Positions 2,786 through 55,030 are shown, counted from the first letter of the stretch. The stretch is 64,000 nucleotides of DNA from an uncultured Alphaproteobacteria bacterium (GCA_946188105.1 CAMHTQ010000002.1:111973-175972), one strand, 5' to 3'. Translations and numbers: made by a program. Notes: generated by a model from the letters alone, not told the origin.

Positions 2786-3120
2786 CTTTCAAGTTGAGAC
2801 AAAAATTTCCCAACCTATGAAATTTCGCGATAATATATTGAAATCGCAACATTGTTAATAAAAGCAGCTCATCAAATGTGATTTTTGATGCGTATTTTTA
2901 TGCAATCAAAAATTGTTCAAGAAGAGATATGCAGACAGTTGAATTTGGAATTATCCAAACTTTGACAAAGTCAATGTGCATATCTTAAGACAGGTAGTAG
3001 GTTTTTAATTTAAACCTCGTTAAAATAACTTGTCTTGCGAATATATATATGTAAAGACGAACTGAATTTATGTCAGCTTTGTTTTATTATGCACAGGACT
3101 TATGACTACAAGTTTTTTAG

Positions 3121-4621
<1,501 letters not shown>

Positions 4622-4814: not shown

Positions 4815-5119
4815 CTTTTTAGATGAGGTTGAAATCAAAAATGAGAAATCATTTTTGATTCCAAATATTCCAATGAATATCCAATGGAATCTGCTTTTAT
4901 AGCAATACATTGTTAATCGGTTTTTATGTCACAAGTTAAACGAAAGTTTAATTTGTTGTACATCGTAATCTCAAAAATATCTTTCTAACAACAAAGGATA
5001 ACCACGTATGTGGTAATTCAATTTGCAAGAAAGCAAGAATCAACTAAGCTTAAAGAAAACTCATTCAAGTTATTTTTAAGTGTTTGAAGACATTCTCTTC
5101 AAGCATAAGATAAAAAGTA

Positions 5120-7860
<2,741 letters not shown>

Positions 7861-7940
7861 ATCTTATCGTTTGTTTAATTACAAACGATAATGCTTGAAG
7901 AGAATGTTGATTCAAAAGTTTACGATGTGCTGGATTTAAT

Positions 7941-8056
7941 TCTGGTGATTATAGAGCGGAAGTCACCCTCTGTTCCATCCCGAACCAGACAGGGAAACTC
8001 CGTATCGCCGATGGTACTTTGGCTTAAGCCACGGAAGAGTAGGTCGTCGCCAGAAT
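7941..8056 (+). rRNA. rrf: 5S ribosomal RNA
   Basis: About 116 nt. The 5' tctggtga pairs with the 3' tcgccaga (helix I). Internal ccgaaccagacagggaaactccgtatcgccgatggtac matches the conserved 5S loop B/C region. It lies immediately 3' of the 23S. Confidence 0.8.
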
Positions 8057-8088
8057 TAAGTCCAGATGGACATAAAAACCGAAATTTA

Positions 8089-8113
8089 AACCGCCCTTTT
8101 GGGCGGTTTTTTG
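8089..8113 (+). terminator. rRNA operon terminator
   Basis: aaaccgcccttttgggcggttttttg has a perfect GC stem plus a U-tract. Confidence 0.8.
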
Positions 8114-8149
8114 TTGGAAAAACAGGGTTTTTTTGATATAATTAAAAGC

Positions 8150-8782
8150 ATGAATACAGAAAAAATTATTCAAGATATTCTAGACGAAATGAGCAAAATG
8201 TTCCACGATGCTGTTGGACCACGTTCACGTCGTGAATATATGAAAAAAAATGATATTCGTGATAGTGATTGGCATTTTCAGTTAAATGTTGAACAAATTA
8301 TAAAGAATAAAATTCCCGCCAATGTTATGGGATGTACTGGTCGTGCAAAATTATTTTGTGAACTTGCAAAACGCAAGGGAATAAACGCATCGGTCGTATG
8401 TACGGCTAAATACAAAGATTGGAAAGACGTAAAAAACGGAAAAAGTGATCGTATCAGAAACGGTCATCAAATAAACGCTGTTAAAATTGATGGTGTTTGG
8501 CGTGTTTTTGATGCAGGATACGAAAAGTTAAAATTTATCAAAACAGATTTAACCCCAGGCAGTTTTCTTACCGACGAAGATATTGTTACTGCGGTTGTGC
8601 CTGGTGACAAGTTTCAAAAGGTTGATAGATACAGAAAATTACATAACTTGTATGTCAGCGGCGATATGAATAATTCAGAATTCACAATAAAACCAAAATT
8701 GTTTCAAAGAGGAACAAAACTTGTTCGTAATAAAATAATGCGACCATTAAGATTGCTGGCAAAAAAAGGTGAAAGACAATAG
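8150..8782 (+). CDS. Transglutaminase-like cysteine peptidase superfamily protein (about 210 aa)
   Basis: MGCTGRAKLFCELAKRKGINASVVC resembles the transglutaminase-core Cys motif (G-C-x-x-x-A-x-L-F...GIPAR-V). A downstream His (NGHQINAVKIDGVWRVFD) and Asp complete a possible Cys-His-Asp triad. The start is placed at the ATG at 8150, after the rrn terminator. The ORF-track start at 8099 overlaps that terminator. Confidence 0.45.
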   Translation: MNTEKIIQDILDEMSKMFHDAVGPRSRREYMKKNDIRDSDWHFQLNVEQIIKNKIPANVMGCTGRAKLFCELAKRKGINASVVCTAKYKDWKDVKNGKSDRIRNGHQINAVKIDGVWRVFDAGYEKLKFIKTDLTPGSFLTDEDIVTAVVPGDKFQKVDRYRKLHNLYVSGDMNNSEFTIKPKLFQRGTKLVRNKIMRPLRLLAKKGERQ

Positions 8783-8807
8783 AAACCGCCAAATTGTGCG
8801 GTTTTTT
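8783..8807 (+). terminator. Rho-independent terminator
   Basis: aaaccgccaaattgtgcggtttttt. Confidence 0.7.
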
Positions 8808-8864
8808 GTTGCAATTTTTTTGGTGCATATTACAATAAACTCGAAATATTTATGGAGATTTTAA

Positions 8865-9137
8865 ATGTCTTATAATGTATACAGCACCAATAACAGAATT
8901 ATGAAAATGAAAGATGTTGACCGCGAGTTAAAGAAAATCGGCACATGGCGTGAAAATGAAAAAGAAATAATCATAGGTATATTGGTCGTTTTATTAAGTT
9001 GTGGAATGTTGTATGCTGGTATAAAAAAATTTCAAAAAAATAATATGTACTTAACAATTGAAGTAAAGAAAACCCCAAAAGCAGCGAATAATAGTAATAC
9101 GTATTTTTATCTGGAAAAGCAAGGAATTCAAAGATAA
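8865..9137 (+). CDS. Small single-pass membrane protein (90 aa), hypothetical
   Basis: Central hydrophobic helix IIIGILVVLLSCGMLYAGI. It has its own RBS (ggagattttaaATG), and a terminator follows. Confidence 0.45.
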   Translation: MSYNVYSTNNRIMKMKDVDRELKKIGTWRENEKEIIIGILVVLLSCGMLYAGIKKFQKNNMYLTIEVKKTPKAANNSNTYFYLEKQGIQR

Positions 9138-9160
9138 AACTGGACCGCCAAAGTGGTGGT

Positions 9161-9186
9161 TTTTTTATTGAAAATATATTGACATA
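9161..9186 (+). repeat. Repeated terminator-tail/promoter cassette, copy 1 (TTTTTTTATTGAAAATATATTGACA)
   Basis: 26-nt near-identical copy at 9882-9907 with one mismatch. It contains a consensus -35 TTGACA, with tatatt/tatact 17 nt downstream as the -10. Confidence 0.6.
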
Positions 9187-9234
9187 TATAAATTTTGTGC
9201 TATATTTACTTGTGTAAACAATAAAAGGAAAAAA

Positions 9235-9852
9235 ATGTTTAAAAGAACCACAAAAAAAACAGTAAGAATGGAAGTTTTTACAAATATTCACCTTTATATA
9301 GATGCCCAAGGAAAATATTGTGTGGCATATAAAAAACAAGATTTGTCTGTTCAGGCACTTGCACATCCTGTTGAAACAAATATGAATCCGGGTCATGCCA
9401 ATTGTTTTAAATTTGATACAATTACTGATGCAAACAAATGTTTGCAAGCAATCTATCTGTATTTGCATCCAAAGGCCAGGGTAACAAATGCTACGAAATT
9501 GTATAAAAGTCAAAACGCCAAGACCAAAATATCAAATATAGAATACAGATATTTTTTCAGACCTGAATTTAATCATGTTTGGAATCCAGCCAATGGCTAT
9601 ACCGAATGGCTTGTTAATATTCCAGATTTAAAAACAGAATATAAAGAAATGATGGGTTTAGATTTACATTGTTATTATGAACAATACACAAAACAAATCG
9701 AAAAAGAACAAAAAGTTATCGCCAAAGAAGAAGCAAAAGCGAAAAAACTTAGCGATAAAAGAGTAAAGCAAATGATAAAAGATCGTGACAGAAAAGATAA
9801 AATTTTATGCCATATGTTGTACCGAGGTGCAAAGAAATGGGGTTATGTATAA
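9235..9852 (+). CDS. Hypothetical protein (205 aa), no signal peptide
   Basis: ORF with RBS aaaaggaaaaaaATG. Lys-rich coiled-coil C-terminus. No recognised motif. Confidence 0.45.
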   Translation: MFKRTTKKTVRMEVFTNIHLYIDAQGKYCVAYKKQDLSVQALAHPVETNMNPGHANCFKFDTITDANKCLQAIYLYLHPKARVTNATKLYKSQNAKTKISNIEYRYFFRPEFNHVWNPANGYTEWLVNIPDLKTEYKEMMGLDLHCYYEQYTKQIEKEQKVIAKEEAKAKKLSDKRVKQMIKDRDRKDKILCHMLYRGAKKWGYV

Positions 9853-9881
9853 AAATAAGATTGAAACCGTCAGCATGGCGG

Positions 9882-9907
9882 TTTTTTTATTGGAAATATA
9901 TTGACAG
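9882..9907 (+). repeat. Repeated terminator-tail/promoter cassette, copy 2
   Basis: tttttttattggaaatatattgaca. See copy 1. Confidence 0.6.
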
Positions 9908-9949
9908 TCGGTATATCCTATACTATTCTCTGGCAAAAGCTTAGATAAA

Positions 9950-10987
9950 ATGATTGTTTACAAAAGTAAAAGATTTTTACTACTGGTTGCTATGGGAACA
10001 TTGTTAATTGCTGCCCAGGATACTGATGAAAAACAAAAATTTGAAAATGGTAAAGATCATTTGCGTCAAGAAATAGAATCTGCAAAAAAAGAATTATATT
10101 TGGTTCGTCCGCATATTGAAAAACAGGTCCAAGACAGCATTGCTAACTATGATAAAACATCAACAAATGCACTGTTGTTGCAAGAAAAACGGCAAGAAAA
10201 ACAAGATTTACAAATCAAAATTACCCAAATTACAGAACAATGTTGGAAAGAATATTGGTTGAAAAACTTTCCAAAATATACGGCATACATAGATTCTTTG
10301 TTTTCTGAAAAAGATATCCAAGAATTATCAGATTACGTTGATTTGGCACATTTTACACTCAGTTGCGACATAGATACAAATTACTATAATTCATTGGATG
10401 AAATATTATACGGCCCATATTGGCGAGAATTTGCGTTTTTTATATCATCTGAATCACCAAAGTTGGCGAAAAAATATACAAATGTTCGTAAATCTGCGGA
10501 ACAGCAATACCCATTTATATTTCCAAAAACGGTCTTTTACGATGGACCACAAATAACAACAACGGATTCAACCAAGGCAAATGCCACATTTACCGAGGCG
10601 ATTAAATTGGGGCGGGAATTATTGCGTCAAAAATCTGTCGCTCCAAACAATTATATGTATAAATACAATAAATACCGTAATGTTTCTAAAATATTTACAG
10701 CCGATATACACTTTTTTGTTGAAAGTATTTTTGTTGGATACCAAGAATATATGGATTTGCAATCTCCATTATTTGCATTGCATATAGATGAATTACAAAC
10801 ATTAACAAATGATGTTATATCGCTGAATTCCCAGATAATCCGGTTAAATATACGACATGACAAAGAGATCAAAAATATAAAAAATCATTTTGATACCATA
10901 GTCAGACAGCAAGAATCAGATAAATCCGCCCATATTAAATTATTACAAAATGCGCTAGAAATGTTTTCAGCCCAAAAAACAAAATAA
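9950..10987 (+). CDS. Secreted coiled-coil hypothetical protein (345 aa)
   Basis: Signal-peptide-like N-terminus MIVYKSKRFLLLVAMGTLLIAAQ. The sequence is Glu/Lys/Gln-rich throughout. Confidence 0.45.
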   Translation: MIVYKSKRFLLLVAMGTLLIAAQDTDEKQKFENGKDHLRQEIESAKKELYLVRPHIEKQVQDSIANYDKTSTNALLLQEKRQEKQDLQIKITQITEQCWKEYWLKNFPKYTAYIDSLFSEKDIQELSDYVDLAHFTLSCDIDTNYYNSLDEILYGPYWREFAFFISSESPKLAKKYTNVRKSAEQQYPFIFPKTVFYDGPQITTTDSTKANATFTEAIKLGRELLRQKSVAPNNYMYKYNKYRNVSKIFTADIHFFVESIFVGYQEYMDLQSPLFALHIDELQTLTNDVISLNSQIIRLNIRHDKEIKNIKNHFDTIVRQQESDKSAHIKLLQNALEMFSAQKTK

Positions 10988-11280
10988 AAACCGCCCGACA
11001 AACCTCATTTTCGGATGTTTATGAAAACAAGGTGTCGTTGAATGGCGGTTTTTACAACGCCCCAATATTTTATGGTTAGCGGGGCATTGCTGGTCTTTAT
11101 GACCCCAAACCCTTGATAAAATCATTGGGTTTGCTGCGGTATCATAAAAGACATAGATATTATGTGCCATTTTACCTTGTGTTTCCACAGGGACGTTTTC
11201 TTATGATTTTTGTTGCACTTTTAAAATTTTAGTCTAGAATCTTTAATATACGAGAGAGAATAAATATAAAAGGTCAAAAA

Positions 11281-11628
11281 ATGAAGAAAATTATTTTATT
11301 GTCTCTTGTGTTTGGTTTGATTACCAGTTCTGCTTTTGCAACATATTACCAAACAACAACTTCTGATTGCAGTGATGCCGCTATGATGGCTGAATTAGAC
11401 AGAGCAACTGCCACACATCGTGCAGTGGTTACTGATGTTACATGCACATACAGTGTGCCAAAACCAGCACCTCAGGTTGCAAAGCCAGCATACAAACCTG
11501 TATATAAACCAACAACATATTTCTATTACGAAGAATATGAAACTGTGGTTGTTGAACCAGCACCAACAGTTGAGGTAATCAGTGTTGTCGAAGAAGAAAG
11601 TTGTTCTTGTGTTAAATGTGGTTGCTAA
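11281..11628 (+). CDS. Small secreted protein (115 aa) with Pro/Lys repeats and a C-terminal Cys cluster
   Basis: Signal peptide MKKIILLSLVFGLITSSAFA. Repeats KPAPQVAKPAYKPVYKP. C-terminal SCSCVKCGC. Confidence 0.5.
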   Translation: MKKIILLSLVFGLITSSAFATYYQTTTSDCSDAAMMAELDRATATHRAVVTDVTCTYSVPKPAPQVAKPAYKPVYKPTTYFYYEEYETVVVEPAPTVEVISVVEEESCSCVKCGC

Positions 11629-11660
11629 AGTATAATAAAAACCCATTTCGAGTTTGAAAT

Positions 11661-11879
11661 ATGCAGAAAACACAAAAACAACAATCCAGACATAAAAATG
11701 CCAAAACCATCTTTTGGTGTGTCGTGTTTGTTTTGATTTGGACAGCATTGGTTGTGGCAAATGCATATGATACAGCAAAACGTGCCAAAGGAATGTTCAG
11801 TTCTGAAACACAAAACAACAATGTTCAAAATGCACAACAACAAATGGGTGTTTATACTAATGTCGGCAAAGTAAGATAA
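11661..11879 (+). CDS. Small single-pass membrane protein (72 aa), hypothetical
   Basis: Hydrophobic helix IFWCVVFVLIWTALVVANA after a basic N-terminus. Confidence 0.35.
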   Translation: MQKTQKQQSRHKNAKTIFWCVVFVLIWTALVVANAYDTAKRAKGMFSSETQNNNVQNAQQQMGVYTNVGKVR

Positions 11880-11915
11880 AATGCCGGCAAATATCGGGAA
11901 AAAATAGGACAGAAA

Positions 11916-12569
11916 ATGATAAAAACAAACGCACAGCTAAACAAAATGTCGACAAAACAATTAGTGGGTTATTTATCTAAACATTATTTGTTATACGAAA
12001 CAACCGTGTTGCCAGAATCAATAAAAATTGGTGATATTGAAATAAAGCAAATCAAAACACCAAAAAATACAAATGCAACAACATGTTGTGGTGATATTTA
12101 CGGATTTTATGTAAATGGCAAAGCAGTATATTTGCACGATGAAATCTTGGAAAATGGCAGTAATGAATTGTTTTTTCAAATTGTAAAATTATACAATAAA
12201 ATTCTGTACAGAAAAAACACAACAAAAGCAAGATTTATTAATTTCAAGACAAACATTACGAATTTTGCATGGGTGGGTGTTTATACATTATTGGTTGGAA
12301 CGGCTGGATATATGATTGGTCAACAAGAGCAACAGAAAAAAGATATGCCTGAATTCGAACCTAAAAAAGAATGCCCAAAACAAACACCGGTCAAATCAGA
12401 AAATCAAACTGTGTTGTATGGCGATGTTCGTGATTTCCAAATACCACAAGAACAAACTTTTGATACAGTAAAATCAAATGTAGCAAATGATACAAAATAT
12501 CAAGATACTCTCAGAATTTATGGTGATATTCGTGATTTTGTATTAAAAGGTAATCAAAATACAAAATAA
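11916..12569 (+). CDS. Hypothetical single-pass membrane protein (217 aa), paralog A
   Basis: N-terminal soluble domain of about 110 aa, a mid-protein TM helix (FAWVGVYTLLVGTAGYMIG), and a C-terminal tail. It shares this architecture with the adjacent gene 12585..13127. Confidence 0.5.
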   Translation: MIKTNAQLNKMSTKQLVGYLSKHYLLYETTVLPESIKIGDIEIKQIKTPKNTNATTCCGDIYGFYVNGKAVYLHDEILENGSNELFFQIVKLYNKILYRKNTTKARFINFKTNITNFAWVGVYTLLVGTAGYMIGQQEQQKKDMPEFEPKKECPKQTPVKSENQTVLYGDVRDFQIPQEQTFDTVKSNVANDTKYQDTLRIYGDIRDFVLKGNQNTK

Positions 12570-12584
12570 GGGGGTAAAACAGGA

Positions 12585-13127
12585 ATGCACGTTATGGATC
12601 AGTCCTTACCAGATTTAGTAAAATATTTAAATAAATGTTATAAAGAATATAATGTCAGTCGTGTTGATGGGTTTTGGAAAATTGGCGATGTATGTATTGC
12701 AAAATTCCCAGATGCATATAGTTCAGATAGATTTTATATTCAAACACCTGAACACAAATATATTGTAACAAAAGACAGAATATACACAAAACAACCAATA
12801 AAAACAGAGTTGTATATCGAAGAGACAAATGTTTGGGTTGCGGATTCCGTATATGATAATTTAACCAAGTTATACAATGCGATAGAAAATCAATATAAAA
12901 AGAATAAAAAATCCCAACATACAAAGTTAGGATTGGTTGGTGTTTCTGTGTTGGTTATTGGTGGCGGAATATTATTATGGTTGGGTAGCAAGATTGATAA
13001 TAAAACTCAAACCCAAGAACGTAATCAAATAAAGAAAGAATATCTGGATGCAATGTATAAAAATGGCGATATAAATGATTCTGTGTATCAAGTTTATCAA
13101 AAAGAACTTGGTCAAAAAACAAAATAA
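12585..13127 (+). CDS. Hypothetical single-pass membrane protein (180 aa), paralog B
   Basis: Same architecture as 11916..12569 (LYNAIENQYKKNKKSQHTK followed by TM LGLVGVSVLVIGGGILLWLG). Strong RBS gggggtaaaacaggaATG. Confidence 0.5.
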   Translation: MHVMDQSLPDLVKYLNKCYKEYNVSRVDGFWKIGDVCIAKFPDAYSSDRFYIQTPEHKYIVTKDRIYTKQPIKTELYIEETNVWVADSVYDNLTKLYNAIENQYKKNKKSQHTKLGLVGVSVLVIGGGILLWLGSKIDNKTQTQERNQIKKEYLDAMYKNGDINDSVYQVYQKELGQKTK

Positions 13128-13130
13128 CAA

Positions 13131-13161
13131 AAAACACCGGTATTTGCCGGTGTTTTTTTTT
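13131..13161 (+). terminator. Rho-independent terminator (variant of the CCGG-hairpin family)
   Basis: caccggtatttgccggtg followed by ttttttttt. Confidence 0.75.
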
Positions 13162-13322
13162 AATACAAGAGGTGCGAATTACACAACTACAAAATCAGGG
13201 CAAAATATCGGTAAATACCGGCAAAAATAAAACAGAGATTTTGCAAAAAAATTGCTTGCAAAATGCCAGCTTTGCTTGCATAATCTTTTGGCAAAAATAA
13301 TCAACATATTAAAGGAGTAACC

Positions 13323-15983
13323 ATGAGTCAAAAATGGGTTTATACTTTCGGAAATGGTAATGCCGAAGGTCGTGCCGATATGCGCAATTTGCTGGGCGGC
13401 AAAGGTGCAAATTTGGCTGAAATGAACTTGGTTGGTTTGCCTGTGCCTGCGGGATTCACAGTAACAACCGAGGTTTGCACATATTATTATGAAAACGGTC
13501 AAACATATCCATCTGATTTGATGGATCAGGTTCGTGCTGGTATTGCACACATTGAAAATATTATGGGCAAAAAATTTGCAGATATGGAAAATCCATTGTT
13601 GGTATCTGTGCGTTCTGGTGCTCGTGTTTCTATGCCTGGTATGATGGATACAGTTTTGAATTTGGGTTTGAATGATGAAACTGTCAAGGCATTAGCAAAA
13701 CATTCTGGTAATGAAAGATTTGCATATGATTCTTACCGTCGTTTTATCATGATGTTCTCTGACGTGGTTTTGGGTGCGGACATTAATTTGTTCGAACACA
13801 AATTAGAAGAAATGAAAGAATCACGTGGATACAAGGTTGATACAGAATTGACAGCCGATGATTTGAAAGAATTGGTTGAACAATTCAAAGAAATTGGAAA
13901 TCAAATCGGTAAAGTATTCCCACAAGATCCATGGGAACAATTGAAATTAGGTATCGGTGCTGTGTTTGGTTCTTGGATGTCCAAAAAGGCAATCACATAT
14001 CGTAAATTGAATAACATCCCAGGCGATTGGGGAACCGCTGTGAATGTTCAAGCAATGGTGTTTGGAAATTCTGGTGATGATTCTGCAACTGGTGTATGTT
14101 TCTCTCGTGACCCTGCAACTGGCGAAAATAAATATTATGGTGAATATTTGATTAATGCCCAAGGTGAAGACGTTGTGGCGGGTATTCGTACTCCACAACC
14201 AATGAGCAAAGATGATTCTGGTCGGGTATCTTTAGAAGAAGCAATGCCAAATGTCTATAAAGAATTATGCGATGTTCGTGAAAAATTGGAAAAGCACTAC
14301 AAAGATATGCAAGATATGGAATTCACAATTGAACATGGCAAATTATGGATGTTGCAATGCCGTAACGGTAAACGTACCGCCGCTGCTGCTGTCCGTATGG
14401 CTGTAGAAATGGTGAACGAAGGATTGCTGACAAAAGAAGAAGCAATCTTGCGTGTTGGTGCCGATCAATTGAATCATTTGTTGCATCCAATGTTGGATCC
14501 AAAAGCAGAAAAGAAAGTTATCGCAATGGGTTTGCCTGCATCCCCAGGTGCTGCTGTTGGTCAGGCTGTGTTTAATGCCGAAGATGCTGAAAAATGGGCA
14601 TCCGAGGGTAAAAAGGTTATGTTAATCCGTTTGGAAACATCACCCGAAGATATCGCTGGTATGAATGCTGCCCAAGGTGTGATTACTGCACGTGGTGGTA
14701 TGACATCACACGCAGCCGTGGTTGCACGTGGTATGGGAACACCATGCGTATCTGGTTCCACAGATATTAAAATTGATTATGCATCCAAAACAATGACATG
14801 TGCATGTGGTGTTGTTATCTCTGAGGGCGATTGGGTATCTATCGATGGCGCACGTGGTGAAATTATCCAGGGTGCAATCCCAACAGTATCTGCACAATTG
14901 ACAGGTAATTTTGGAACATTGATGCAATGGGTTGATGAAATCAAAGATTTGACAGTCAAAGCAAATGCTGAAACACCAAAAGATGCAAAACAAGCACGCG
15001 ACTTTGGTGCCCAAGGTATCGGTTTGGCACGTACAGAACACATGTTCTTTGATCCATCCAGAATTCAAGATATGCGCGAAATGATTTTGGCTGATGACGA
15101 GGCCGGTCGTCGTGCTGCTTTGGATAAATTATTGCCATATCAAAAGGCTGACTTTGTTGAATTGTTCAAAATCATGGATGGTCTGCCAGTTACCGTTCGT
15201 TTGATTGACCCACCTCTACACGAATTCTTGCCACACACAGAACCAGAAATGCAAGAATTGGCAAATCACATTGGCAAATCTTTGGAATTTGTAAAGATGC
15301 GTTCCGAAGCATTGCGTGAATCAAATCCAATGTTGGGTCATCGTGGTTGCCGCTTGGCAATTACATATCCTGAAATCTGTGAAATGCAAACACGTGCAAT
15401 TTTGTCTGCTGCAATCGAATGCAAAAAAGCAGGTGTCAAAGTATTCCCAGAAATCGAAGTCCCATTGGTTGGTTCTAAAAAAGAAGTTGATATCGTTAAA
15501 ACCGTTATCGATGCAACCGCCGCTGCATTGTTTGCAGAAACAGGCGACAGTGTCGAATACACAGTTGGTTCAATGATTGAATTACCACGTGCCGCAGTTT
15601 TGGCTGACGAAATTGCAGAAACATGTGAATTCTTTGAATTTGGAACAAACGATTTGACACAGACAACATTGGGAATGTCTCGCGACGATACAGGTAAAAT
15701 CTTGGATGAATATCGTGCACGCGGTGTTTATGTTGCTGATCCATTTGCATCTGTCGACCAACTGGGTGTTGGTTTGTTAATCAAAGATGCTGTGGCCAAG
15801 GCACGCAAGACCAAGGGCGACAAAATCCACTTGGGTGTTTGCGGTGAACATGGTGGCGATCCTGCATCTATTGAATTCTTCCACAACTGTGGATTCAATT
15901 CAGTATCATGCAGTCCATTCCGTGTGCCAATCGCACGTTTGGCAGCGGCTCAGGCAGCTGTTAAATTCCCACGCAAAAAATAA
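13323..15983 (+). CDS. ppdK: Pyruvate, phosphate dikinase
   Basis: 886 aa. N-terminus MSQKWVYTFGNGNAEGRADMRNLLGGKGANLAEM. The catalytic His region GGMTSHAAVVARGMGTPCV and the C-terminal PEP-utilising TIM-barrel motif (FFSIGTNDLTQ-like: FFEFGTNDLTQTTLGMSRDD). RBS aaaggagtaaccATG. Confidence 0.95.
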   Translation: MSQKWVYTFGNGNAEGRADMRNLLGGKGANLAEMNLVGLPVPAGFTVTTEVCTYYYENGQTYPSDLMDQVRAGIAHIENIMGKKFADMENPLLVSVRSGARVSMPGMMDTVLNLGLNDETVKALAKHSGNERFAYDSYRRFIMMFSDVVLGADINLFEHKLEEMKESRGYKVDTELTADDLKELVEQFKEIGNQIGKVFPQDPWEQLKLGIGAVFGSWMSKKAITYRKLNNIPGDWGTAVNVQAMVFGNSGDDSATGVCFSRDPATGENKYYGEYLINAQGEDVVAGIRTPQPMSKDDSGRVSLEEAMPNVYKELCDVREKLEKHYKDMQDMEFTIEHGKLWMLQCRNGKRTAAAAVRMAVEMVNEGLLTKEEAILRVGADQLNHLLHPMLDPKAEKKVIAMGLPASPGAAVGQAVFNAEDAEKWASEGKKVMLIRLETSPEDIAGMNAAQGVITARGGMTSHAAVVARGMGTPCVSGSTDIKIDYASKTMTCACGVVISEGDWVSIDGARGEIIQGAIPTVSAQLTGNFGTLMQWVDEIKDLTVKANAETPKDAKQARDFGAQGIGLARTEHMFFDPSRIQDMREMILADDEAGRRAALDKLLPYQKADFVELFKIMDGLPVTVRLIDPPLHEFLPHTEPEMQELANHIGKSLEFVKMRSEALRESNPMLGHRGCRLAITYPEICEMQTRAILSAAIECKKAGVKVFPEIEVPLVGSKKEVDIVKTVIDATAAALFAETGDSVEYTVGSMIELPRAAVLADEIAETCEFFEFGTNDLTQTTLGMSRDDTGKILDEYRARGVYVADPFASVDQLGVGLLIKDAVAKARKTKGDKIHLGVCGEHGGDPASIEFFHNCGFNSVSCSPFRVPIARLAAAQAAVKFPRKK

Positions 15984-16065: not shown

Positions 16066-17844
16066 ATGCCAAAATTACAAATCTTACCAACATCACTTTG
16101 GAAATTTTATTTAAAATATGGTATCAAAGATTACAAATTTTTACTAATTTGTTGGATGATTACACTGTTACTGGTATTTTCTGGTGGTGTGATTTGGCCA
16201 AATTTTCAACGTTGGGTTGTCGCATTGTTTGAAAATCCAATTCCCGATGGTATGACTTTTATTCAATACGCAATGCCGACAATTATTTTAATAACCGTGT
16301 TGAATATGTTGATGACATTGAGTGATATAATTAGCTCAACTATCGACTCTCATTTATGGCCAAAAATTTCCAATCAAATATCAGAAACATTAACAACGTA
16401 CACGCATCAACAATCGATGAATTTTTGGACTGAAAAAATGTCTGGTTCAATAAATTCACAAATAAATTATATCACCGAAGGAATAACGCTTGGTGTTACT
16501 GAATTATGGCGCTGTGTTGGACGTTTAGGTATAATTTTGGTGAACGGTGCATTATTGTTAGCCATTAACAAATACGTTGCGTATTTATTTGTGTTTGCAC
16601 TTGGGTTTCGAATAATATACGCATGGCGTATGCGTGGTCGTGTAAAAAAAGCCAGTGAAGAGGCATCTGGTGCCAGAAGTGCGTTGACAGGAAAATTGGT
16701 TGACAGTTTTTCTAATTATTCAATTGTGAAATCGTTTGCGGGTGCCGAAAAAGAACGCAAAATCTTGGATAAACCGCGTCAAAAGCGTGTACAAACACAA
16801 ATGTATTCGCGTTATACAATGCGTTTGTTTTGGGCTTTTCCTGGGTTGTTGTGGGATTTGTTGTTTGGTTTAACGATTTTATTTTGTTGCATTTTGTATC
16901 AACGTGGTGAAATAGCAGTTTCAGAAATAATATTTACAATATCTGTATACATACAGGTGATGGGTGCTGTTGGAATGTTAATAAACAGATTCCCAGAAAT
17001 TATTGACAAATTAGCGGCGGCCAAAAAAGCATATCGCGATTTAGTGGTGCCTTTGGATATTGTGGATAAAAATAATGCTAAACCATTGCGTATTAAGCAC
17101 GGAAAAATTGAATTCCAAAATGTATCTTTCAAATACAAAAACAGAAATAACAATGTGTTGAAAGATGTTTCTTTGACGATAAACCCAGGGGAACGGGTTG
17201 GGATTGTTGGACTGTCTGGTGCTGGAAAAACGACACTGGTAAATTTATTAATGCGTTTTTACGAACCCACACACGGAGCTATTTTAATAGATGGTCAAAA
17301 CATTCAAGATGTAAAACAGGATTCTTTGCGTGAAAGTATATCGTATATTCCCCAAGACCCAACAATGTTTAACAGAACAATTAGTGATAATATAGGATAT
17401 GGCAAAACAAATTCATCCAAAGCAGATATAAAACGTGCTGCCAAATTTGCATCTGCAGATAAATTTATTATGGATACGGAAAAAGGTTATGATTCATTGG
17501 TTGGTGATCGTGGTATTCAATTGTCTGGTGGTCAGCGTCAAAGAATTGCTATTGCGCGTGCATTCTTGAAAAATGCCCCAATTTTGGTTTTGGACGAGGC
17601 AACATCTGCGCTGGATTCTGAAACAGAAATTTCAATTCAAAAATCATTTGATAAATTGTCTGCGGGTCATACAACAATGGTTATTGCACATCGTTTATCA
17701 ACACTGCGTAATATGGACCGAATTATTGTGTTGGATAAAGGGCGCGTTATTGAATCAGGAACACATAATTCATTGTTGCGTAAAAAAGGCCTGTATTCAA
17801 AATTGTGGAAAATGCAAAGTGGTGGCTTTTTACAAGATAAATAA
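16066..17844 (+). CDS. ABC exporter, fused permease/ATPase (MsbA-like)
   Basis: 592 aa. N-terminal six-helix TMD. Walker A GLSGAGKTT, ABC signature LSGGQRQRIAIARA, Walker B ILVLDEATSALD, and an H-loop. Confidence 0.9.
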   Translation: MPKLQILPTSLWKFYLKYGIKDYKFLLICWMITLLLVFSGGVIWPNFQRWVVALFENPIPDGMTFIQYAMPTIILITVLNMLMTLSDIISSTIDSHLWPKISNQISETLTTYTHQQSMNFWTEKMSGSINSQINYITEGITLGVTELWRCVGRLGIILVNGALLLAINKYVAYLFVFALGFRIIYAWRMRGRVKKASEEASGARSALTGKLVDSFSNYSIVKSFAGAEKERKILDKPRQKRVQTQMYSRYTMRLFWAFPGLLWDLLFGLTILFCCILYQRGEIAVSEIIFTISVYIQVMGAVGMLINRFPEIIDKLAAAKKAYRDLVVPLDIVDKNNAKPLRIKHGKIEFQNVSFKYKNRNNNVLKDVSLTINPGERVGIVGLSGAGKTTLVNLLMRFYEPTHGAILIDGQNIQDVKQDSLRESISYIPQDPTMFNRTISDNIGYGKTNSSKADIKRAAKFASADKFIMDTEKGYDSLVGDRGIQLSGGQRQRIAIARAFLKNAPILVLDEATSALDSETEISIQKSFDKLSAGHTTMVIAHRLSTLRNMDRIIVLDKGRVIESGTHNSLLRKKGLYSKLWKMQSGGFLQDK

Positions 17845-18424: not shown

Positions 18425-18569
18425 AAAATTTCGCCCGTTTGGGCGATTTTTTTTATGGTGTCATACGCGTTTTTCTATTTACACGGTTTAACTAAAAATG
18501 GTATAATACATATAAAGTGAAGGTTTAAAATAAAAAAATGGCTGAAATATGCCGTTTCAGGAGAGCTCT

Positions 18570-20768
18570 ATGAAAAACCAAAAAATGACAGATGCATACA
18601 AAAATGCGATGGGGACAGTTTTCTTACTCGCTGGTGCATTTTTTATTTGTTCAACATTGTTATCAATGCGGACGGTTCTTGCTGATCCAATTGCGCCGGT
18701 AACCGCAACAAGATCCCAGGTCAGTCCTGCTCGTGCGGCGGCTCGTAATACTACGAAAACACGTTCTTCGGTTGCTCGTTCTACAACGACACGTGCGGTT
18801 GCAACACCACGTGACAGTGCGGCTGGTGCTCGTAATATTCGTACTCGCAGTGTACGTGTTCGTACCACCGATGGTGCCAGTCAAGAAGTCCAACAGGCTG
18901 TACGTAATGATATAAAAACACGTTCAGTATCCCAACGTCGTGGCGGAACTGGTGCTACCCGTAATACACAACGTGTGGTCGCCAGAACTGCAACAACACC
19001 TTCACGTGTAAGTTTGGTCGGTACGGGAATGCGTGCAACAACTGGAACTTCTACCAGTAATGCAACCGTTTCTTATCTGTCAACCAAGGTATATTCAAAC
19101 AATTATTCAAACATCATTGATTCTTCAACTGGTTTGATTTCTGCCGATGCATACAGCGACTGCTTAGAGGGTTACTATACATGTATGGATGAAATCTGCA
19201 CAGCCCGCAGTGATACCAAGGGTCGTTGCTCTTGTGCTGGACGTGCAACAAACTTCTTGGCGGCTGAAACAGCATTGGAAAAGGCAAATGAAGAGTTAAT
19301 CAATTTGTCTGGTCAATTGGCATTGTTGGTCGCAACCAAGGGTAAAGACGTCAGCGAGGCATTTAAATTAACCGATGCTGAAAAGGTTATGAACTGTGTT
19401 TCATATAAAGAAAATGTTTTAACGGGAAATCAAACTGCTGCCGATTGGTACCAAGAACACCCAACATGGAACAGTTCTAATGCAAAACAAACATCTGGTA
19501 TCCCAGAATATTGCCAAGAAAGCGGAAACAGTTTCGGATTCGACATCAGTTCAATCAACGGTTCTGGCTCGGATATTTTGGCATCATTAAAGGCATGGGC
19601 TGATGCAAAAGATTTGGCCAAAGAATATACAGTGAACGACAGTGATAATTTGTTATCACAATATGGTGCGGTTGCTGGTGTTGTGAACGGTTTGTCCGGT
19701 GTTACAACAACCGATATAGACGAGGCAAAATTAGACGGTTTGGCAAACAAATGGGGGTATGAATTATTTGAATATGCTCACAACAATGTTTGCGGTCGTG
19801 TATTAGATGCGTGCTTTAACGGAATTTACGAGGCATGTGGTACACCACCATCTGGTGTTGACTCTGCTGGACATAAAATTGGTAAATGCGCAAACAGTGC
19901 ATCAACATCTTGTCCATATAACTACAATAGTGCAATCGCGGTCAAGGTCAGTGGCGATGGCTCGGGTGAGGTTACATTGAACGAACGTGGCTCCACAGGC
20001 AGTTCAACAACCACATCTGCAACATGCTTTGGTTATACATCTGCATCTGGTGATCCTTATGCAACTTTGCGTGGCCCTGTTGCTGATGCTCGTCGCAGTA
20101 TTATGCAGAAATATTTGTTGGATGCCAATGCGGCATGCGATACATATGGAACTGCATTGAAAAATACTGCACAAAACATCAATTATCAAAAAATTGCAGC
20201 AGAACAGGCATTACGTCAAAAACGTATGGAATTCTATAATGCTGAACAGGAAAAATTGCAAAAAGATACTGTCGCTGCTATCGAGAACTTTAACGAATGT
20301 ATCAGTGAAATCTGGGATTGCTATAACGAAAATTCAGATCAAGATACATGGAGTGGTGCTCGTATCAAAACATATTGTGCCCAGGTTTCAAATGTCCCAC
20401 ATTGTTATGAAACTATGATTTGTACACCAACACAAATAACCAGAACAATTGTTGATGTACCAGATAGCACAATGTGCAAGTTTGATGCTTCCGAAGAGGT
20501 AAATACTTGCCGTAACATCGTTACATTGAATGAAATCTTGTATGGTGCGGCTCCTCAGGTAAGTACAGATTCCATAGCCAGTATGATAGATATTTTGAGC
20601 GGCAAGGTTTCAAACAGCAGTTCAGAAATCAATTCTACATACTTGCGTGAGGCATGTTTAAGAATGGCTTTGAACTGTGTCCCTGGCATAGATGATGAAC
20701 AGGGCAACACAGACGATGAATGTCTGCGTAAATGGAAAAAACCAGTAAAAGAAAGCTCTGGAAATTAA
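18570..20768 (+). CDS. Large secreted Cys-rich protein, paralog 1 (about 732 aa). Signal peptide, Arg/Thr-rich disordered region, Cys-rich domain.
   Basis: RBS caggagagctctATG at 18570; the ORF-track ATG at 18549 is possible but lacks an RBS. Signal-anchor LLAGAFFICSTLLSMRTVLA. Residues ~45-170 are R/T/S/A low complexity with repeated ATR tripeptides. Then a Cys-rich region (YTCMDEICTA...GRCSCAG, CGRVLDAC). It is clearly paralogous to 21659..23932. Confidence 0.7.
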   Translation: MKNQKMTDAYKNAMGTVFLLAGAFFICSTLLSMRTVLADPIAPVTATRSQVSPARAAARNTTKTRSSVARSTTTRAVATPRDSAAGARNIRTRSVRVRTTDGASQEVQQAVRNDIKTRSVSQRRGGTGATRNTQRVVARTATTPSRVSLVGTGMRATTGTSTSNATVSYLSTKVYSNNYSNIIDSSTGLISADAYSDCLEGYYTCMDEICTARSDTKGRCSCAGRATNFLAAETALEKANEELINLSGQLALLVATKGKDVSEAFKLTDAEKVMNCVSYKENVLTGNQTAADWYQEHPTWNSSNAKQTSGIPEYCQESGNSFGFDISSINGSGSDILASLKAWADAKDLAKEYTVNDSDNLLSQYGAVAGVVNGLSGVTTTDIDEAKLDGLANKWGYELFEYAHNNVCGRVLDACFNGIYEACGTPPSGVDSAGHKIGKCANSASTSCPYNYNSAIAVKVSGDGSGEVTLNERGSTGSSTTTSATCFGYTSASGDPYATLRGPVADARRSIMQKYLLDANAACDTYGTALKNTAQNINYQKIAAEQALRQKRMEFYNAEQEKLQKDTVAAIENFNECISEIWDCYNENSDQDTWSGARIKTYCAQVSNVPHCYETMICTPTQITRTIVDVPDSTMCKFDASEEVNTCRNIVTLNEILYGAAPQVSTDSIASMIDILSGKVSNSSSEINSTYLREACLRMALNCVPGIDDEQGNTDDECLRKWKKPVKESSGN

Positions 20769-20789
20769 ACAAAAAAAACATATAAATAA

Positions 20790-20822
20790 AAATGCCCGAT
20801 GAAAATCGGGTGTTTTTATTTG
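20790..20822 (+). terminator. Rho-independent terminator
   Basis: aaaaatgcccgatgaaaatcgggtgtttttatt. Confidence 0.75.
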
Positions 20823-20963
20823 GAAAAATGGCACTAAAAACATAAATTGCATAAATTTTTATACAAAAACCTTGACTTAATGTAAAAAAATGTTATTCTT
20901 GGCATAAAGTTTTAGACATTTTGTCGAAACAAAACAAGAACAATTAACAAAGGTGAAAGAAAA

Positions 20964-21263
20964 ATGGGCAATTTTGCAATCTTTCAAACCGGTGGAAAAC
21001 AATACCGCGTCCAAGCTGGCGACACAATCAAGGTCGAAAAAATCAACGCCGAGGGTGATGTTGAATTTGACAAGATTTTGATGATTGGCGACAAGGTCGG
21101 CAATCCATATGTCGAAGGTGCACGTGTTATTGCAACGGTTGTTGAACAAAAACGCGATGACAAAGTTTTGGTGTTCAAGAAAAAACGCCGTCAAAACTAT
21201 CGTCGTACCAAGGGTCATCGTCAATACCTTACCGTATTGAAGATTAAGGAAATCAAGGGCTAA
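20964..21263 (+). CDS. rplU: 50S ribosomal protein L21
   Basis: [27 protein letters not shown]... is a canonical L21 N-terminus. 99 aa. Confidence 0.95.
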
Positions 21264-21283
21264 TTGGCCAAAGGAGTGAAATT

Positions 21284-21550
21284 ATGGCACACAAGAAAGC
21301 TGGTACCTCTACTTCGAACGGACGCGACTCTGCGGGACGCAGATTAGGTGTCAAGAAATCCGGTGGTGCACGTGTTATTCCTGGCAATATCATTATTCGC
21401 CAACGTGGCACAGCCTTCCATCCTGGATTGAATGTCGGTATGGGTAAAGACCACACAATATTTGCCAAGGTTTCAGGCACTGTGAAATTCAAACGTGGTT
21501 TGAATGATCGCAAGACAGTTTCTGTCGTTCCTGATGAAGAAGCAAAATAA
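21284..21550 (+). CDS. rpmA: 50S ribosomal protein L27
   Basis: [28 protein letters not shown]...[17 protein letters not shown] is a canonical L27. 88 aa. Confidence 0.95.
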
Positions 21551-21572
21551 TAAAATAAACATATATTGTTTG

Positions 21573-21612
21573 AACCCACAAAAAGCATCGTGTTTTTTGT
21601 GGGTGTTTTTTT
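21573..21612 (+). terminator. rplU-rpmA terminator
   Basis: aacccacaaaaagcatcgtgttttttgtgggtgtttttttt. Confidence 0.75.
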
Positions 21613-21658
21613 TTACTCTTTTATCTTAGGTAAAAATGTGGTATAATTATCATACAAA

Positions 21659-26724: not shown

Positions 26725-27999
26725 TTATTTTTTCAACTTGCGGATGCTTTCAAAATTCTTTTTGGTTTTTTTCCATAAACCTGTAATATCTTTTTGAACT
26801 TGTTGACCTAAACCGTCGTCAATCTTGCCACCCCATTCCTCAGCCAAATTTTGTGCTTTTTCTGCCATATAACAAACCAATAACAATGTCAAAATTAAAA
26901 TGATTGCACCACCAATACCATCCATATTTGCACTGGCTGAAATTTGACCTGATGATGCATCTATGACAAAAGATAGCAAGGATATTGCAACCCCAATCGC
27001 AACAGACAAACATACGAAATACAATGCAGCTTTGATAAAACGATTTATCTGTTTTTCTAAACTTTCGCCTTTGAATATTGACAGAAAAGTATTAAATATA
27101 TCGCCGGCAACACCTTTGTAGTTTGTTTTAGCGGTTGTTTCTGCAATAGCGGTAAATGGCAATAACATCATCGCCAAGAATAAATCAGCAATAACCCCCA
27201 GTGCGACAAACAAAAATTTCCAAATACATTTCAAAGCCAAATATGTTACATATAAACCGATAATCACAGAAAATAAACTGACCCCGACGCCACCAACAAC
27301 CCATTTCCAACCAATGCCCATTATTGTTACAAAAAATCCTGACATTTGTGACGGAATACATAATAATCCAGCCGCAGATTCAGCACTGATTGATAATCCA
27401 GCGGGGGTATTTGCCTTGGCATATTGTTCAATCGCCGCACAATTATCAGGAATACTGAATCCAGCCAAACTGGTTACCGATTCCCAAATCACGTGTGATA
27501 TGTATGTTCCTGCGGCCACAATAGGCACCATAATCATCGCAAATGTTTCTGCGATTCCATATTTTAATACAATCAACCATACAGAAATCCAAATACCTTT
27601 GATTAAAATAGTTTTGACGGCTTCTTTGGCATCAGACCCATTTTCAATCAAATTGTATGCTTCGAAAGCAACCCAGAAAGCATAAGCCAACAGCATAAAC
27701 ATCAAAGCAAAACGAACCAACGAAGAATCTAATGCTTTGCCAATACTGGACAATCCGCCCATAAATGCCAAACCAATTTTTGCCTCGATTGGAACAAATG
27801 TTCCCTGTACATTTGATGCTGTTGGACCAAAATTATTTAACTCGTTGGTTATTGTTCCATTAACCAATTCACGATTTTGTGGTGTTGCCCACAAACCATA
27901 ATCACCGATGTCTGTTTCTGCGGCAAAGCCAGGCAATGCGATGAATACAGCAACCACAGCAATCATAATTTTCTTAAAAAGATTAGCCAACATCATCAT
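26725..27999 (-). CDS. virB6: VirB6/TrbL-like polytopic membrane protein, paralog 5 of array (424 aa)
   Basis: Signal peptide, six or more hydrophobic helices, a periplasmic loop with a Cys pair, and a Lys-rich cytoplasmic tail (WKKTKKNFESIRKLKK). This topology is shared with the four neighbouring paralogs, and tandem multiplication is typical of Rickettsiales rvhB6. Confidence 0.55.
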   Translation of the reverse strand: MMMLANLFKKIMIAVVAVFIALPGFAAETDIGDYGLWATPQNRELVNGTITNELNNFGPTASNVQGTFVPIEAKIGLAFMGGLSSIGKALDSSLVRFALMFMLLAYAFWVAFEAYNLIENGSDAKEAVKTILIKGIWISVWLIVLKYGIAETFAMIMVPIVAAGTYISHVIWESVTSLAGFSIPDNCAAIEQYAKANTPAGLSISAESAAGLLCIPSQMSGFFVTIMGIGWKWVVGGVGVSLFSVIIGLYVTYLALKCIWKFLFVALGVIADLFLAMMLLPFTAIAETTAKTNYKGVAGDIFNTFLSIFKGESLEKQINRFIKAALYFVCLSVAIGVAISLLSFVIDASSGQISASANMDGIGGAIILILTLLLVCYMAEKAQNLAEEWGGKIDDGLGQQVQKDITGLWKKTKKNFESIRKLKK

Positions 28000-29495: not shown

Positions 29496-29500
29496 TTACT

Positions 29501-31983: not shown

Positions 31984-32043
31984 CTTAAATAATTATTATT
32001 GTAATTATATCATAAATTGGTAAAAATATGTTATAATTAAAAT

Positions 32044-51214: not shown

Positions 51215-51246
51215 AAAAATTGCCGGCAAATGCCGGTAATTTTTTA
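51214..51246 (+). terminator. Terminator (CCGGCAAATGCCGG family)
   Basis: aaaaaaattgccggcaaatgccggtaatttttt. Confidence 0.75.
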
Positions 51247-54694: not shown

Positions 54695-54782
54695 AAAAAA
54701 GCCGGCAAATGCCAGTTTTTTCGGGCCCCGCAAAATTGCAAAATTTTGTGGGTATAATCTGCCGGCAAATGCCGGTTTTTTA
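54693..54782. terminator. Cluster of three hairpins, two of them CCGGCAAATGCC[GA]G family, between lpxD and the convergent lipoprotein gene
   Basis: gccggcaaatgccagttttt (54701-54720), ccccgcaaaattgcaaaattttgtggg (54725-54752), and ccggcaaatgccggtttttt (54762-54780). Confidence 0.6.
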
Positions 54783-55010: not shown

Positions 55011-55030
55011 TACCGGCATTTGCCGGTATT
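55011..55030 (-). terminator. Terminator of the porin gene (CCGGCATTTGCCGG, inverted family member)
   Basis: aaaaataccggcatttgccggtattttt, a palindromic stem with A/T runs on both sides. Confidence 0.75.

Follow-up and report, generated by a model that had tools for sequence, protein, structure and literature searches.

What kind of region separates the ribosomal RNA (rRNA) operon from ppdK in an uncultured alphaproteobacterium, and how do the small, mostly unclassified genes found there come and go? The region, at positions 8089-13162 of a 64,000-nt stretch of DNA (GCA_946188105.1, CAMHTQ010000002.1:111973-175972; the whole stretch is hereafter called the window, to which coordinates refer unless a contig is named), was described in the original prediction, made from the sequence alone, as an accessory island assembled from repeated terminator-promoter cassettes. 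Comparison with related contigs shows that it is an accessory zone, made of self-contained cassettes that are gained, lost, replaced and re-ordered at repeated joints. The interval between the 5S rRNA gene and ppdK is probably a genus-wide variable zone, i.e. an exchange site of the minimal mobile element (MME) type, lacking a mobility gene. Hotspots of this kind are already known; here the cassette boundaries are unusually clean.

A variable interval between the rRNA operon and ppdK

The window contains a single rRNA operon (16S, 3120-4621; a tRNA; 23S, 5111-7863; 5S, 7941-8055), whose 5S gene, on the plus strand (Rfam RF00001, 78.9 bits), forms the conserved left anchor of the variable zone. 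The conserved right anchor is ppdK (13323-15983, plus strand). By ppdK, the nearest named relatives belong to Candidatus Enterousia, a gut alphaproteobacterial genus of the order Rs-D84 with genomes reported to be mostly below 1 Mb (PMC12306168). The window itself is part of a 209-kb contig of a metagenome-assembled genome. The related contigs and junctions compared with the window are designated by L-numbers (L087, L219, etc.). Both flanks are present in at least 11 relatives, with 5S upstream of ppdK on the same strand; nucleotide identity of 5S to these relatives is 95-100%, and amino acid identity of ppdK is 89-98% across the genus. The spacer between the two ranges from 2.2 to 9.7 kb and its gene content differs almost completely across the genus, and synteny is kept 3′ of the junction (ppdK, an ABC transporter, a gene for a 167-aa protein and one for a large membrane protein).

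Eight credible open reading frames (ORFs), p1 to p8, lie between 5S and ppdK in the window, all on the plus strand. Nine genes had been announced earlier, in a description that itself names eight; a minus-strand ORF at 10967-11188, considered as the ninth, is non-coding, since the block around it varies by 1-2-nt indels among relatives. Clustering of the ORFs of 18 junctions yielded families of patchy occurrence, with p5 in eight junctions, p1 in four, p3 and p4 in three each, and p2, p7 and p8 in two each; p6 was found in same-species contigs only, and the other junctions hold further orphan families not found in this window. Gene order varies as well. From the rRNA operon to ppdK, the window reads p1-p2-p3-p4-p5-p6-p7-p8, L087 and L215 read p3-p4-g118-g161-p5-g224-p8like, L218 has another gene followed by p3-F22-F25-p4-p5-F24, and L093 reads p3-64aa-p2-p5-p7like, so that p2 lies downstream of p3, the reverse of the order in the window. 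The same set of genes in the same order was clearly not found in relatives, and with a spacer of such variable length and such patchy, re-ordered content, the earlier description of an accessory region holds.

The variable zone does not have the same limits everywhere. In more distant species, some housekeeping genes are found in the junction. The stretch from 5S to ppdK in L081-L083 and L004 includes leuS, a gene for an acyl-ACP thioesterase and further housekeeping genes, and the boundaries of the zone therefore differ between species.

Gain and loss of cassettes is also evident within the species. The contigs L219 and L220, which come independently from other samples, are 98-99% identical to the window wherever sequence is shared. 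L219 lacks p3: window positions 8843-9184 correspond to L219 488-829 and positions 9851-13340 to L219 775-4262, and because these two segments overlap on L219, the single 55-nt joint found there is the counterpart of both joints that flank p3 in the window, to both of which it aligns. This joint is a hybrid: the 5′ arm and the loop of its hairpin agree with the left copy, and everything from the 3′ arm on agrees with the right copy. At the other variable position, p1 is replaced in L219 by a gene for a 74-aa protein (g74) that has its own TTGACA promoter and is flanked by two identical copies of the rRNA operon (rrn) hairpin of L219, the complete order being 5S, terminator, g74, second terminator copy, p2, one joint, and p4-p5-p6-p7-p8. 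In L220, the rrn hairpin leads straight into the p2 promoter, i.e. p1 is missing, and p3 is kept; the right-hand breakpoint of this difference is the terminator that follows p1 in the window (T2, see below). Whole cassettes are present, absent or replaced within one species, with breakpoints in or beside terminator repeats.

Repeated terminator joints and the p3 cassette

A repeat search recovered a 37-nt family with four copies, at 8083, 8778, 9137 and 9859, each consisting of an ACCGCC...GGCGG hairpin (folding energies of -11 to -17 kcal/mol), a T-run, and then [A/G]TTGNAA. The hairpin of the first copy is the rrn terminator itself, T1 (8088-8112, plus strand; AAACCGCCC-TTTT-GGGCGGTTT followed by a T-run; -17.3 kcal/mol, z -3.3), which is the founding copy of the family, and an ACCGCC-type stem also serves as 5S terminator in 9 of the 10 relatives whose terminator is readable. 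A promoter-like site for p1 (8114-8142, plus strand; TTGGAA-N17-TATAAT, 10 of 12 matches, with a TG extension) directly abuts the T-run of T1. The same arrangement recurs after p1, where terminator T2 (8783-8807, plus strand; AAACCGCC-AAATTGT-GCGGTTTTTT; -13.6 kcal/mol) is abutted by the -35 box of the promoter-like site of p2 (8809-8836, plus strand; TTGCAA-N16-TACAAT). The p2 homologue in L093 has the same promoter as in the window, behind a different upstream gene.

The two remaining copies are the joints of the p3 unit. The left joint (9142-9184, plus strand) comprises hairpin T3 (9142-9162), a T-run and a first copy (9160-9184) of the module TTTTTTTATTG[A/G]AAATATATTGACA, which ends in a TTGACA -35 box and leads into the promoter-like site of p3 (9179-9206, plus strand; TTGACA-N16-TATATT, 11 of 12 matches). 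The right joint (9863-9906, plus strand) comprises hairpin T4 (9863-9885), a T-run and the second module copy (9882-9906), and the promoter-like site of p4 lies at 9901-9929 (plus strand; TTGACA-N17-TATTCT). The module is the core of a 41-nt repeat of 85% identity (9144-9184 and 9866-9906). It occurs exactly at these two sites and nowhere else in the 64 kb, against an expectation of 0.01; the earlier description, which has the module repeated in two intergenic regions, gave its length as 26 nt, and it measures 25 nt as written. The joints are real boundaries between modules and no chance similarity of AT-rich sequence: insertions and deletions as well as homology breakpoints between genomes lie in them, and the view of terminator-promoter joints as modular units is borne out.

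For each of p1 to p4, the predicted -35/-10 pair matches the consensus at 9-11 of 12 positions. Taken as a class, promoter-like sites show no enrichment (32, compared to an expectation of 26.4 ± 5.2). Terminator-like sites on the plus strand are enriched about 8-fold in the island (6 in 5.3 kb versus 8 in 58.7 kb, Poisson P ~1e-4), and the other terminators of the window have stems unrelated to the ACCGCC family. The earlier statement that almost every gene has its own ACCGCC terminator is correct for p1 to p4. In terminator T5 after p4 (10985-11054, plus strand; -26.6 kcal/mol, z -4.3), an inner hairpin of about 47 nt, retained with compensatory changes in relatives, interrupts the ACCGCC/GGCGG stem, and a T-run follows. 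The statement does not extend to p5, p6, p7 and p8, between which there is no hairpin, or to the hairpin after p8, a bidirectional terminator of a different, CCGG-loop-CCGG type (13129-13158; -17.8 kcal/mol, z -6.1), whose family is distributed over the genome. Because no hairpin separates them, p5 to p8 probably form a single operon, with a promoter-like site read from the sequence at 11213-11240 (plus strand; TTGCAC-N16-TAGAAT), right after a T-run, and conserved in relatives as TTGCAA-N17-TATAAT. The zone of the window would accordingly hold five predicted transcription units, i.e. the single-gene cassettes p1, p2, p3 and p4 and the p5-p8 operon.

The hairpin family is a feature of the junction across relatives. 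The ACCGCC hairpin motif has 25 matches in 81.6 kb of junctions compared to 8 in 371 kb outside, a 14-fold higher density, and the excess is still 7-fold after removal of the rrn terminators (P 5e-8). Stems of this type recur after junction genes in many relatives, with three copies each in L010, L012 and L015. Since the family is confined to the junction, a role of these hairpins as DNA-uptake sequences was ruled out. What is repeated here is the joint, which behaves as a recombination site, or scar, at which unrelated genes are gained, lost, swapped and transferred between species. The idea that the island grew by cassette duplication is not supported in that form: the island genes are not recent copies of each other, as only p7 and p8 are detectably related (25% identity, E 6e-5).

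A second palindrome family, CCGGCAAATGCCGG, has 8 copies in the 64 kb (38-51, 11884-11897, 13137-13150, 13208-13221, 51223-51236, 54702-54715, 54762-54775 and 55013-55026) where 0.04 would be expected. At several sites it acts as a terminator; among the copies is one upstream of the ppdK promoter, with a similar repeat pair in the same region of L087 and L218. The family could represent a REP-like element, the binding site of a regulator, or convergence.

Further evidence for movement comes from p3 (9235-9852, plus strand), a demonstrably mobile cassette that encodes a basic cytoplasmic orphan protein of 205 aa. Between the window and L087, nucleotide identity is 98.4% for the p3 ORF and 91.7% for ppdK. 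Identity of about 98-99% extends from the -35 box (~9179) to the last p3 codons (~9840), the near-identity starting inside the left joint (~9170-9179), and drops sharply to ~60-66% on either side of p3. For the same pair, synonymous divergence (dS) amounts to 0.045 in p3, 0.41 in ppdK, and more than 1.1 in both the ABC transporter gene and the 167-aa gene, which indicates that the p3 unit was transferred recently between species. Of the few differences within p3, about half alter the amino acid, and this speaks for recent common ancestry and against extreme constraint.

Direct repeats flank the p3 unit in all four genomes that could be examined in this respect, with a spacing of 722-731 bp: 41 nt with 85% identity in the window, 39 nt with 100% in L218, 27 nt with 89% in L087, and 57 nt with 79% in L093. 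The left joint of the window is closer to its own right joint than to the orthologous left joints of L087 and L218, which points to recombination or gene conversion between the two joints. The hairpin after p3 varies among genomes in which p3 itself is 97-98% identical. In every examined contig of sufficient length, p3 lies upstream of ppdK in this same junction. Only about four distinct p3 sequence clusters were recovered across two protein-database searches, and the AlphaFold2 (AF2) model, built from an alignment of 7 sequences (predicted local distance difference test score, pLDDT, of 58), was unusable for fold search. The possibility that the unit is an IS200/IS605-like element was rejected: there is no Pfam HUH/Y1 match, His19 is not conserved, and p3 is present as a single copy in the window.

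The cassette genes and their products

The first gene of the array, p1 (8150-8782, plus strand), encodes a cytoplasmic protein of 210 aa for which a transglutaminase/papain-like fold with a Cys62-His106-Asp121 triad is predicted. Its match to the Pfam family Transglut_core is weak (E 0.0023; 18.6 bits, under the gathering threshold of 23 bits), and this sub-threshold hit is the only one that Pfam, PHROGs, PADLOC and NCBIfam returned for the eight proteins. Across the 28 members of the p1 family, C62 and H106 do not vary, and at least 90% of the members have D121. Together with the modelled structure, which has the core fold of transglutaminases and papain, this agrees with the fold proposed for p1 in the original prediction, that of a transglutaminase-like Cys-peptidase. 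Compared to the Transglutaminase-like/papain-like superfamily, the p1 family is distinct in being lineage-restricted, in its length of 190-236 aa, and in an extra N-terminal helical bundle. The model thus describes p1 as a Cys-His-Asp enzyme of the transglutaminase fold, and candidate activities would include those of a protease, transglutaminase, deamidase or acyltransferase. The p1 mRNA may be leaderless, as the predicted -10 box ends 7 nt upstream of the ATG and no Shine-Dalgarno sequence is evident (8137-8152). A database entry containing p1 is 13 aa longer at the N-terminus (223 aa); its start would fall inside the terminator T-run, and this start call looks wrong. The neighbours of p1 homologues elsewhere are not conserved (a GNAT acetyltransferase gene, an F3-family gene, or none), and in L084 the homologue is found at an unrelated locus.

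The remaining products are lineage-specific orphans and mostly small. Both p2 (8865-9137, plus strand; 90 aa, hydrophobic segment at residues 35-53) and p6 (11661-11879, plus strand; 72 aa) encode predicted single-pass membrane miniproteins with one strong hydrophobic segment each, as proposed earlier. The p2 gene of L220 (383-514) differs by 1 nt in length from that of the window and was called as 43 aa only; this suggests a frameshift, which could reflect decay in that strain or an assembly error. The 345-aa product of p4 (9950-10987, plus strand) has a signal-like hydrophobic stretch at the N-terminus and charged helical ends, with homologues in L001 and L087 (41-52% identity; ratio of nonsynonymous to synonymous divergence, dN/dS, 0.26-0.34). 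The most widespread cassette gene is p5 (11281-11628, plus strand; 115 aa), whose product features a signal peptide with an N-terminal hydrophobic segment, in line with the earlier call of a secreted protein, conserved Cys30 and Cys55, a Pro-rich linker, and a C-terminal CxCxxCGC motif, here reading SCSCVKCGC. The last two genes form the pair of distant paralogues mentioned above, and the similarity between them, weak as it is, is in line with their earlier designation as a paralogous pair: p7 (11916-12569, plus strand; 217 aa, with a homologue in L093) encodes an N-terminal cytoplasmic domain, a weak transmembrane segment and a C-terminal tail, and p8 (12585-13127, plus strand; 180 aa, with a homologue in L087) a protein with a transmembrane segment at residues 115-133. 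Searches of PDB sequences with p1, p3, p4, p7 and p8 returned nothing.

A conserved non-coding element of about 125 nt (11074-11199, plus strand) is located between the p4 terminator and the p5 promoter. With nhmmer, it was detected in 18 loci, the window among them, in a single copy each (E 1e-29 to 5e-35). Every one of these loci carries a p5-family gene, which lies downstream of the element in all cases where positions were compared; in L087 and L128, a further gene separates the element from p5. A metagenome scan with a 17-mer from the element returned 120 loci, only 3 of them real. The element belongs to no Rfam family, the Rfam scan of the island having produced terminator-like noise only. 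A coding function is ruled out by 1-2-nt indels among relatives, and a structured RNA was dismissed on account of weak covariation, inconsistent z-scores (-2.0 to +1.0) and the lack of a consistent fold. The element might represent a regulatory region to which a protein binds, or else an unstructured small RNA.

The ORFs of the island are intact in independent samples, and their dN/dS values of 0.22-0.65, compared to 0.04-0.07 for ppdK, indicate real genes evolving under relaxed purifying selection. Composition sets them apart modestly but significantly from the other ORFs of the window, with a lower GC content (0.325 versus 0.378, P 4e-4) and a lower GC content at third codon positions, GC3 (0.250 versus 0.296, P 2e-3), in answer to a comparison suggested with the original prediction. 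The orphan status ascribed to the island genes is correct insofar as most of them have no family match; it is not specific to the island, since 15 of the 30 other large ORFs of the window also lack a Pfam match. Among the unclassified ORFs outside the island, those at 18549-23932 and 26725-33357 form runs that encode predicted membrane or exported proteins, and the lineage is rich in unclassified envelope proteins. Immediately 3′ of ppdK, an ABC exporter (16066-17844) is 91% identical in L001 and only 56-59% identical in L018, L087, L093 and L128, though ppdK is 96-98% identical there. It may be a second fast-evolving or replaced locus beside the island.

A probable cassette exchange zone, its rivals and its meaning

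Of known systems, the minimal mobile elements of Neisseria (Saunders & Snyder 2002; Snyder et al. 2007; definition from PMC3082526) show the features of this zone: two conserved flanks, different whole-gene cassettes between them depending on the strain, and no integrase, transposase or insertion sequence. In the present case, the whole-gene cassettes between the flanks differ both across the genus and within the species, without mobility genes or insertion-sequence ends within the 64 kb; with Pfam, PHROGs and NCBIfam, no integrase, transposase or recombinase was detected, either among the eight proteins of the island or among the 30 further large ORFs scanned in the window. Exchange of MMEs is attributed to transformation and homologous recombination, and the window contains a gene for ComEC (38792-40753, minus strand; Pfam Competence, E 6e-53). 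The zone differs from MMEs in that one of its anchors is an rRNA operon, in that it holds an array of up to five units instead of one alternative cassette, and in that internal breakpoints fall on repeats of the terminator hairpin of this rRNA operon, which allows cassettes to be added, removed or re-ordered singly.

The zone also fits the definition of an rrn-adjacent plasticity zone of the Chlamydia rrn-nqrF type, as given in PMC10715202. The Chlamydia zone and the SAR11 hypervariable regions reported to be flanked by rRNA genes (Grote et al. 2012, cited in bioRxiv 10.64898/2026.04.03.716430) are likewise hypervariable stretches of a small genome that lie directly beside an rRNA operon, with a conserved housekeeping gene adjoining. 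They vary both within and between species, and their genes are non-essential and suspected of a part in interactions. At 2-10 kb, the Enterousia zone is much smaller; it contains tiny orphan genes, and its regular promoter-gene-hairpin architecture with repeated joints is not described in the passages of those sources consulted.

Whole-gene cassettes would be swapped between the rRNA operon and ppdK as anchors. DNA would enter the cell by natural transformation, as suggested by the presence of the ComEC gene, and would be incorporated by homologous recombination, for which rrn and ppdK would offer long homology on the outside and the joints 25-40 nt on the inside. If two joints in direct orientation recombined with each other, a cassette would be deleted, or freed as a circle that could re-insert. 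The strong hairpins might also shield each gene from read-through out of the rRNA operon. RmuC (34772-35998, plus strand) and components of a type IV secretion system similar to VirB10/TrbI and VirB9/CagX (59389-63434, minus strand) are also encoded in the window, and together with ComEC they are possible routes of DNA uptake in a reduced genome.

Several observations weigh against this picture of cassette exchange. The right edge of the p1/g74 swap lies outside the hairpin, just upstream of the p2 ribosome-binding site, and the hybrid joint of L219 is equally compatible with an ancestral empty site and with a later deletion. For p4 and p5, divergence (41-64%) does not exceed what other envelope proteins show between these species (56-77%), and these two cassettes may therefore simply have been inherited vertically; hyper-divergence of p4 and p5, considered at one stage, was dropped once this background had been measured. 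Re-use of hairpin sequences is wider than the zone, given that the CCGGCAAATGCCGG family recurs eight times in the window, and convergence, under selection for strong termination downstream of rrn, could partly explain why the hairpins are alike. The recombination pathway is deduced and not observed, and what can be said on function draws only on predicted topology and the p1 triad.

By predicted topology, most island products are membrane-anchored or secreted, as are many proteins of this lineage encoded outside the island. The products might be envelope or secreted factors that are strain-specific and dispensable, and that act against or together with partner cells, phages or the host. A more specific proposal, which concerns function and is compatible with an exchange zone, is that of a toxin/immunity or defence array comparable to the acquired interbacterial defence clusters of gut Bacteroidales, with p1 as an orphan papain-like effector and the small membrane or periplasmic proteins as immunity factors. 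The intact triad of p1, a fold shared with the bacterial effectors SseI, Ceg10 and LapG, the small membrane or exported nature of most other products, and the strain-level variation of gene content would fit such an array. A gene with a Zeta-toxin/AAA_33 domain is located in the same rrn-ppdK junction in L081-L083 (L081 2920-3588), with a homologue in L004 (2759-3451), which would also be in keeping with it. However, PADLOC gave no match for any of the eight proteins, no toxin, immunity or secretion-marker domain was recognised among them, p1 has no conserved neighbour elsewhere, and the window showed no type VI secretion genes. We regard a defence array as doubtful.

A site-specific, integron-like system is unlikely. 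In such a system, the ACCGCC hairpins would be attC-like folded sites, and a recombinase encoded elsewhere would insert circular cassettes beside the rrn terminator. Like integron cassette arrays, including those without a nearby integrase, the zone has co-oriented single-gene orphan units that are individually present or absent and bounded by imperfect palindromes of one family; the direct repeats on both sides of p3, perfect over 39 nt in L218, the precise hybrid joint where p3 is absent (L219), and the placement of new cassettes (p1, g74) at the rrn-proximal end would also be expected. Against this, the array has the rRNA operon upstream and ppdK downstream with no adjacent IntI tyrosine recombinase, and no integrase or other recombinase was found among the scanned ORFs, i.e. 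neither in or next to the array nor among the 30 large ORFs of the 64 kb. The hairpins are short intrinsic terminators of 21-26 nt with perfect G+C stems, and not attC structures of 57-141 nt; the bases after the T-run, [A/G]TTG[A/C/G]AA, are those of -35 boxes and not GTTRRRY, and no RYYYAAC precedes the 5′ arm. Each cassette appears to have its own promoter, where integron cassettes are promoterless and depend on a common Pc. Moreover, the hairpin after p3 varies despite 97-98% identity of p3, and one breakpoint lies outside the hairpin, a pattern that fits general recombination better than a fixed crossover point. The integron reading thus fails on integrase, attC architecture and promoterless cassettes.

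A bolder variant, to which we give still less credence, would make the rrn hairpin the recognition site of a compact cassette-capture system, a terminator-based analogue of integrons, or would have p3 mobilise its own hairpin-flanked unit of 720 bp. If true, the recombinase would be encoded elsewhere or be a housekeeping enzyme, and promoter-bearing genes would be loaded beside the rRNA operon in genomes below 1 Mb.

Purely vertical inheritance of a fast-evolving core region, with differential loss and no lateral exchange, is very improbable. It would be consistent with the divergence of p4 and p5, which equals that of the envelope-protein background, and with the finding of homologues at the same locus. 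It is already contradicted by the dS of p3 (0.045, versus 0.41 to above 1.1 for its neighbours), and also by the reversed order of p2 and p3 in L093, the mutual substitution of p1 and g74 on a background of 98-99% identity, and the p1 homologue at an unrelated locus in L084. Phage 'morons' are likewise autonomous units of promoter, one ORF and intrinsic terminator, as judged here at the sequence level, with a lower GC content than their surroundings; around the zone there is no prophage, and its products do not resemble phage proteins. That the zone is what remains of a prophage or another mobile element, or lies on a chimeric contig beside the rRNA repeat, is hardly credible, despite the resemblance to morons and the tendency of short-read contigs to break at rRNA genes (the first base of many related contigs is at 5S or no more than ~150 nt from it), since no integrase was found among the ORFs scanned and there is no PHROGs match better than E 0.03 for the eight proteins, p3 had no match in 50,697 phage records (tblastn) nor island DNA in 72,556 plasmid records (blastn), and L219 and L220 reproduce the arrangement in independent samples at 98-99% identity.

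If the 5S-ppdK interval is the exchange zone proposed here, a lineage of gut symbionts with reported genomes below 1 Mb retains a dedicated exchange site, at which single genes move without a mobility gene. The only repeated sequence involved would be the rRNA terminator, which makes the zone a clean natural case for exchange that depends on short repeats. The zone is situated where short-read contigs break, i.e. at the rRNA operon, and strain-specific genes of this kind would for this reason be systematically truncated in, or lost from, metagenome-assembled genomes. The cassettes may be reasonable first candidates for strain differences in the behaviour of these bacteria towards partner cells, phages and the host.

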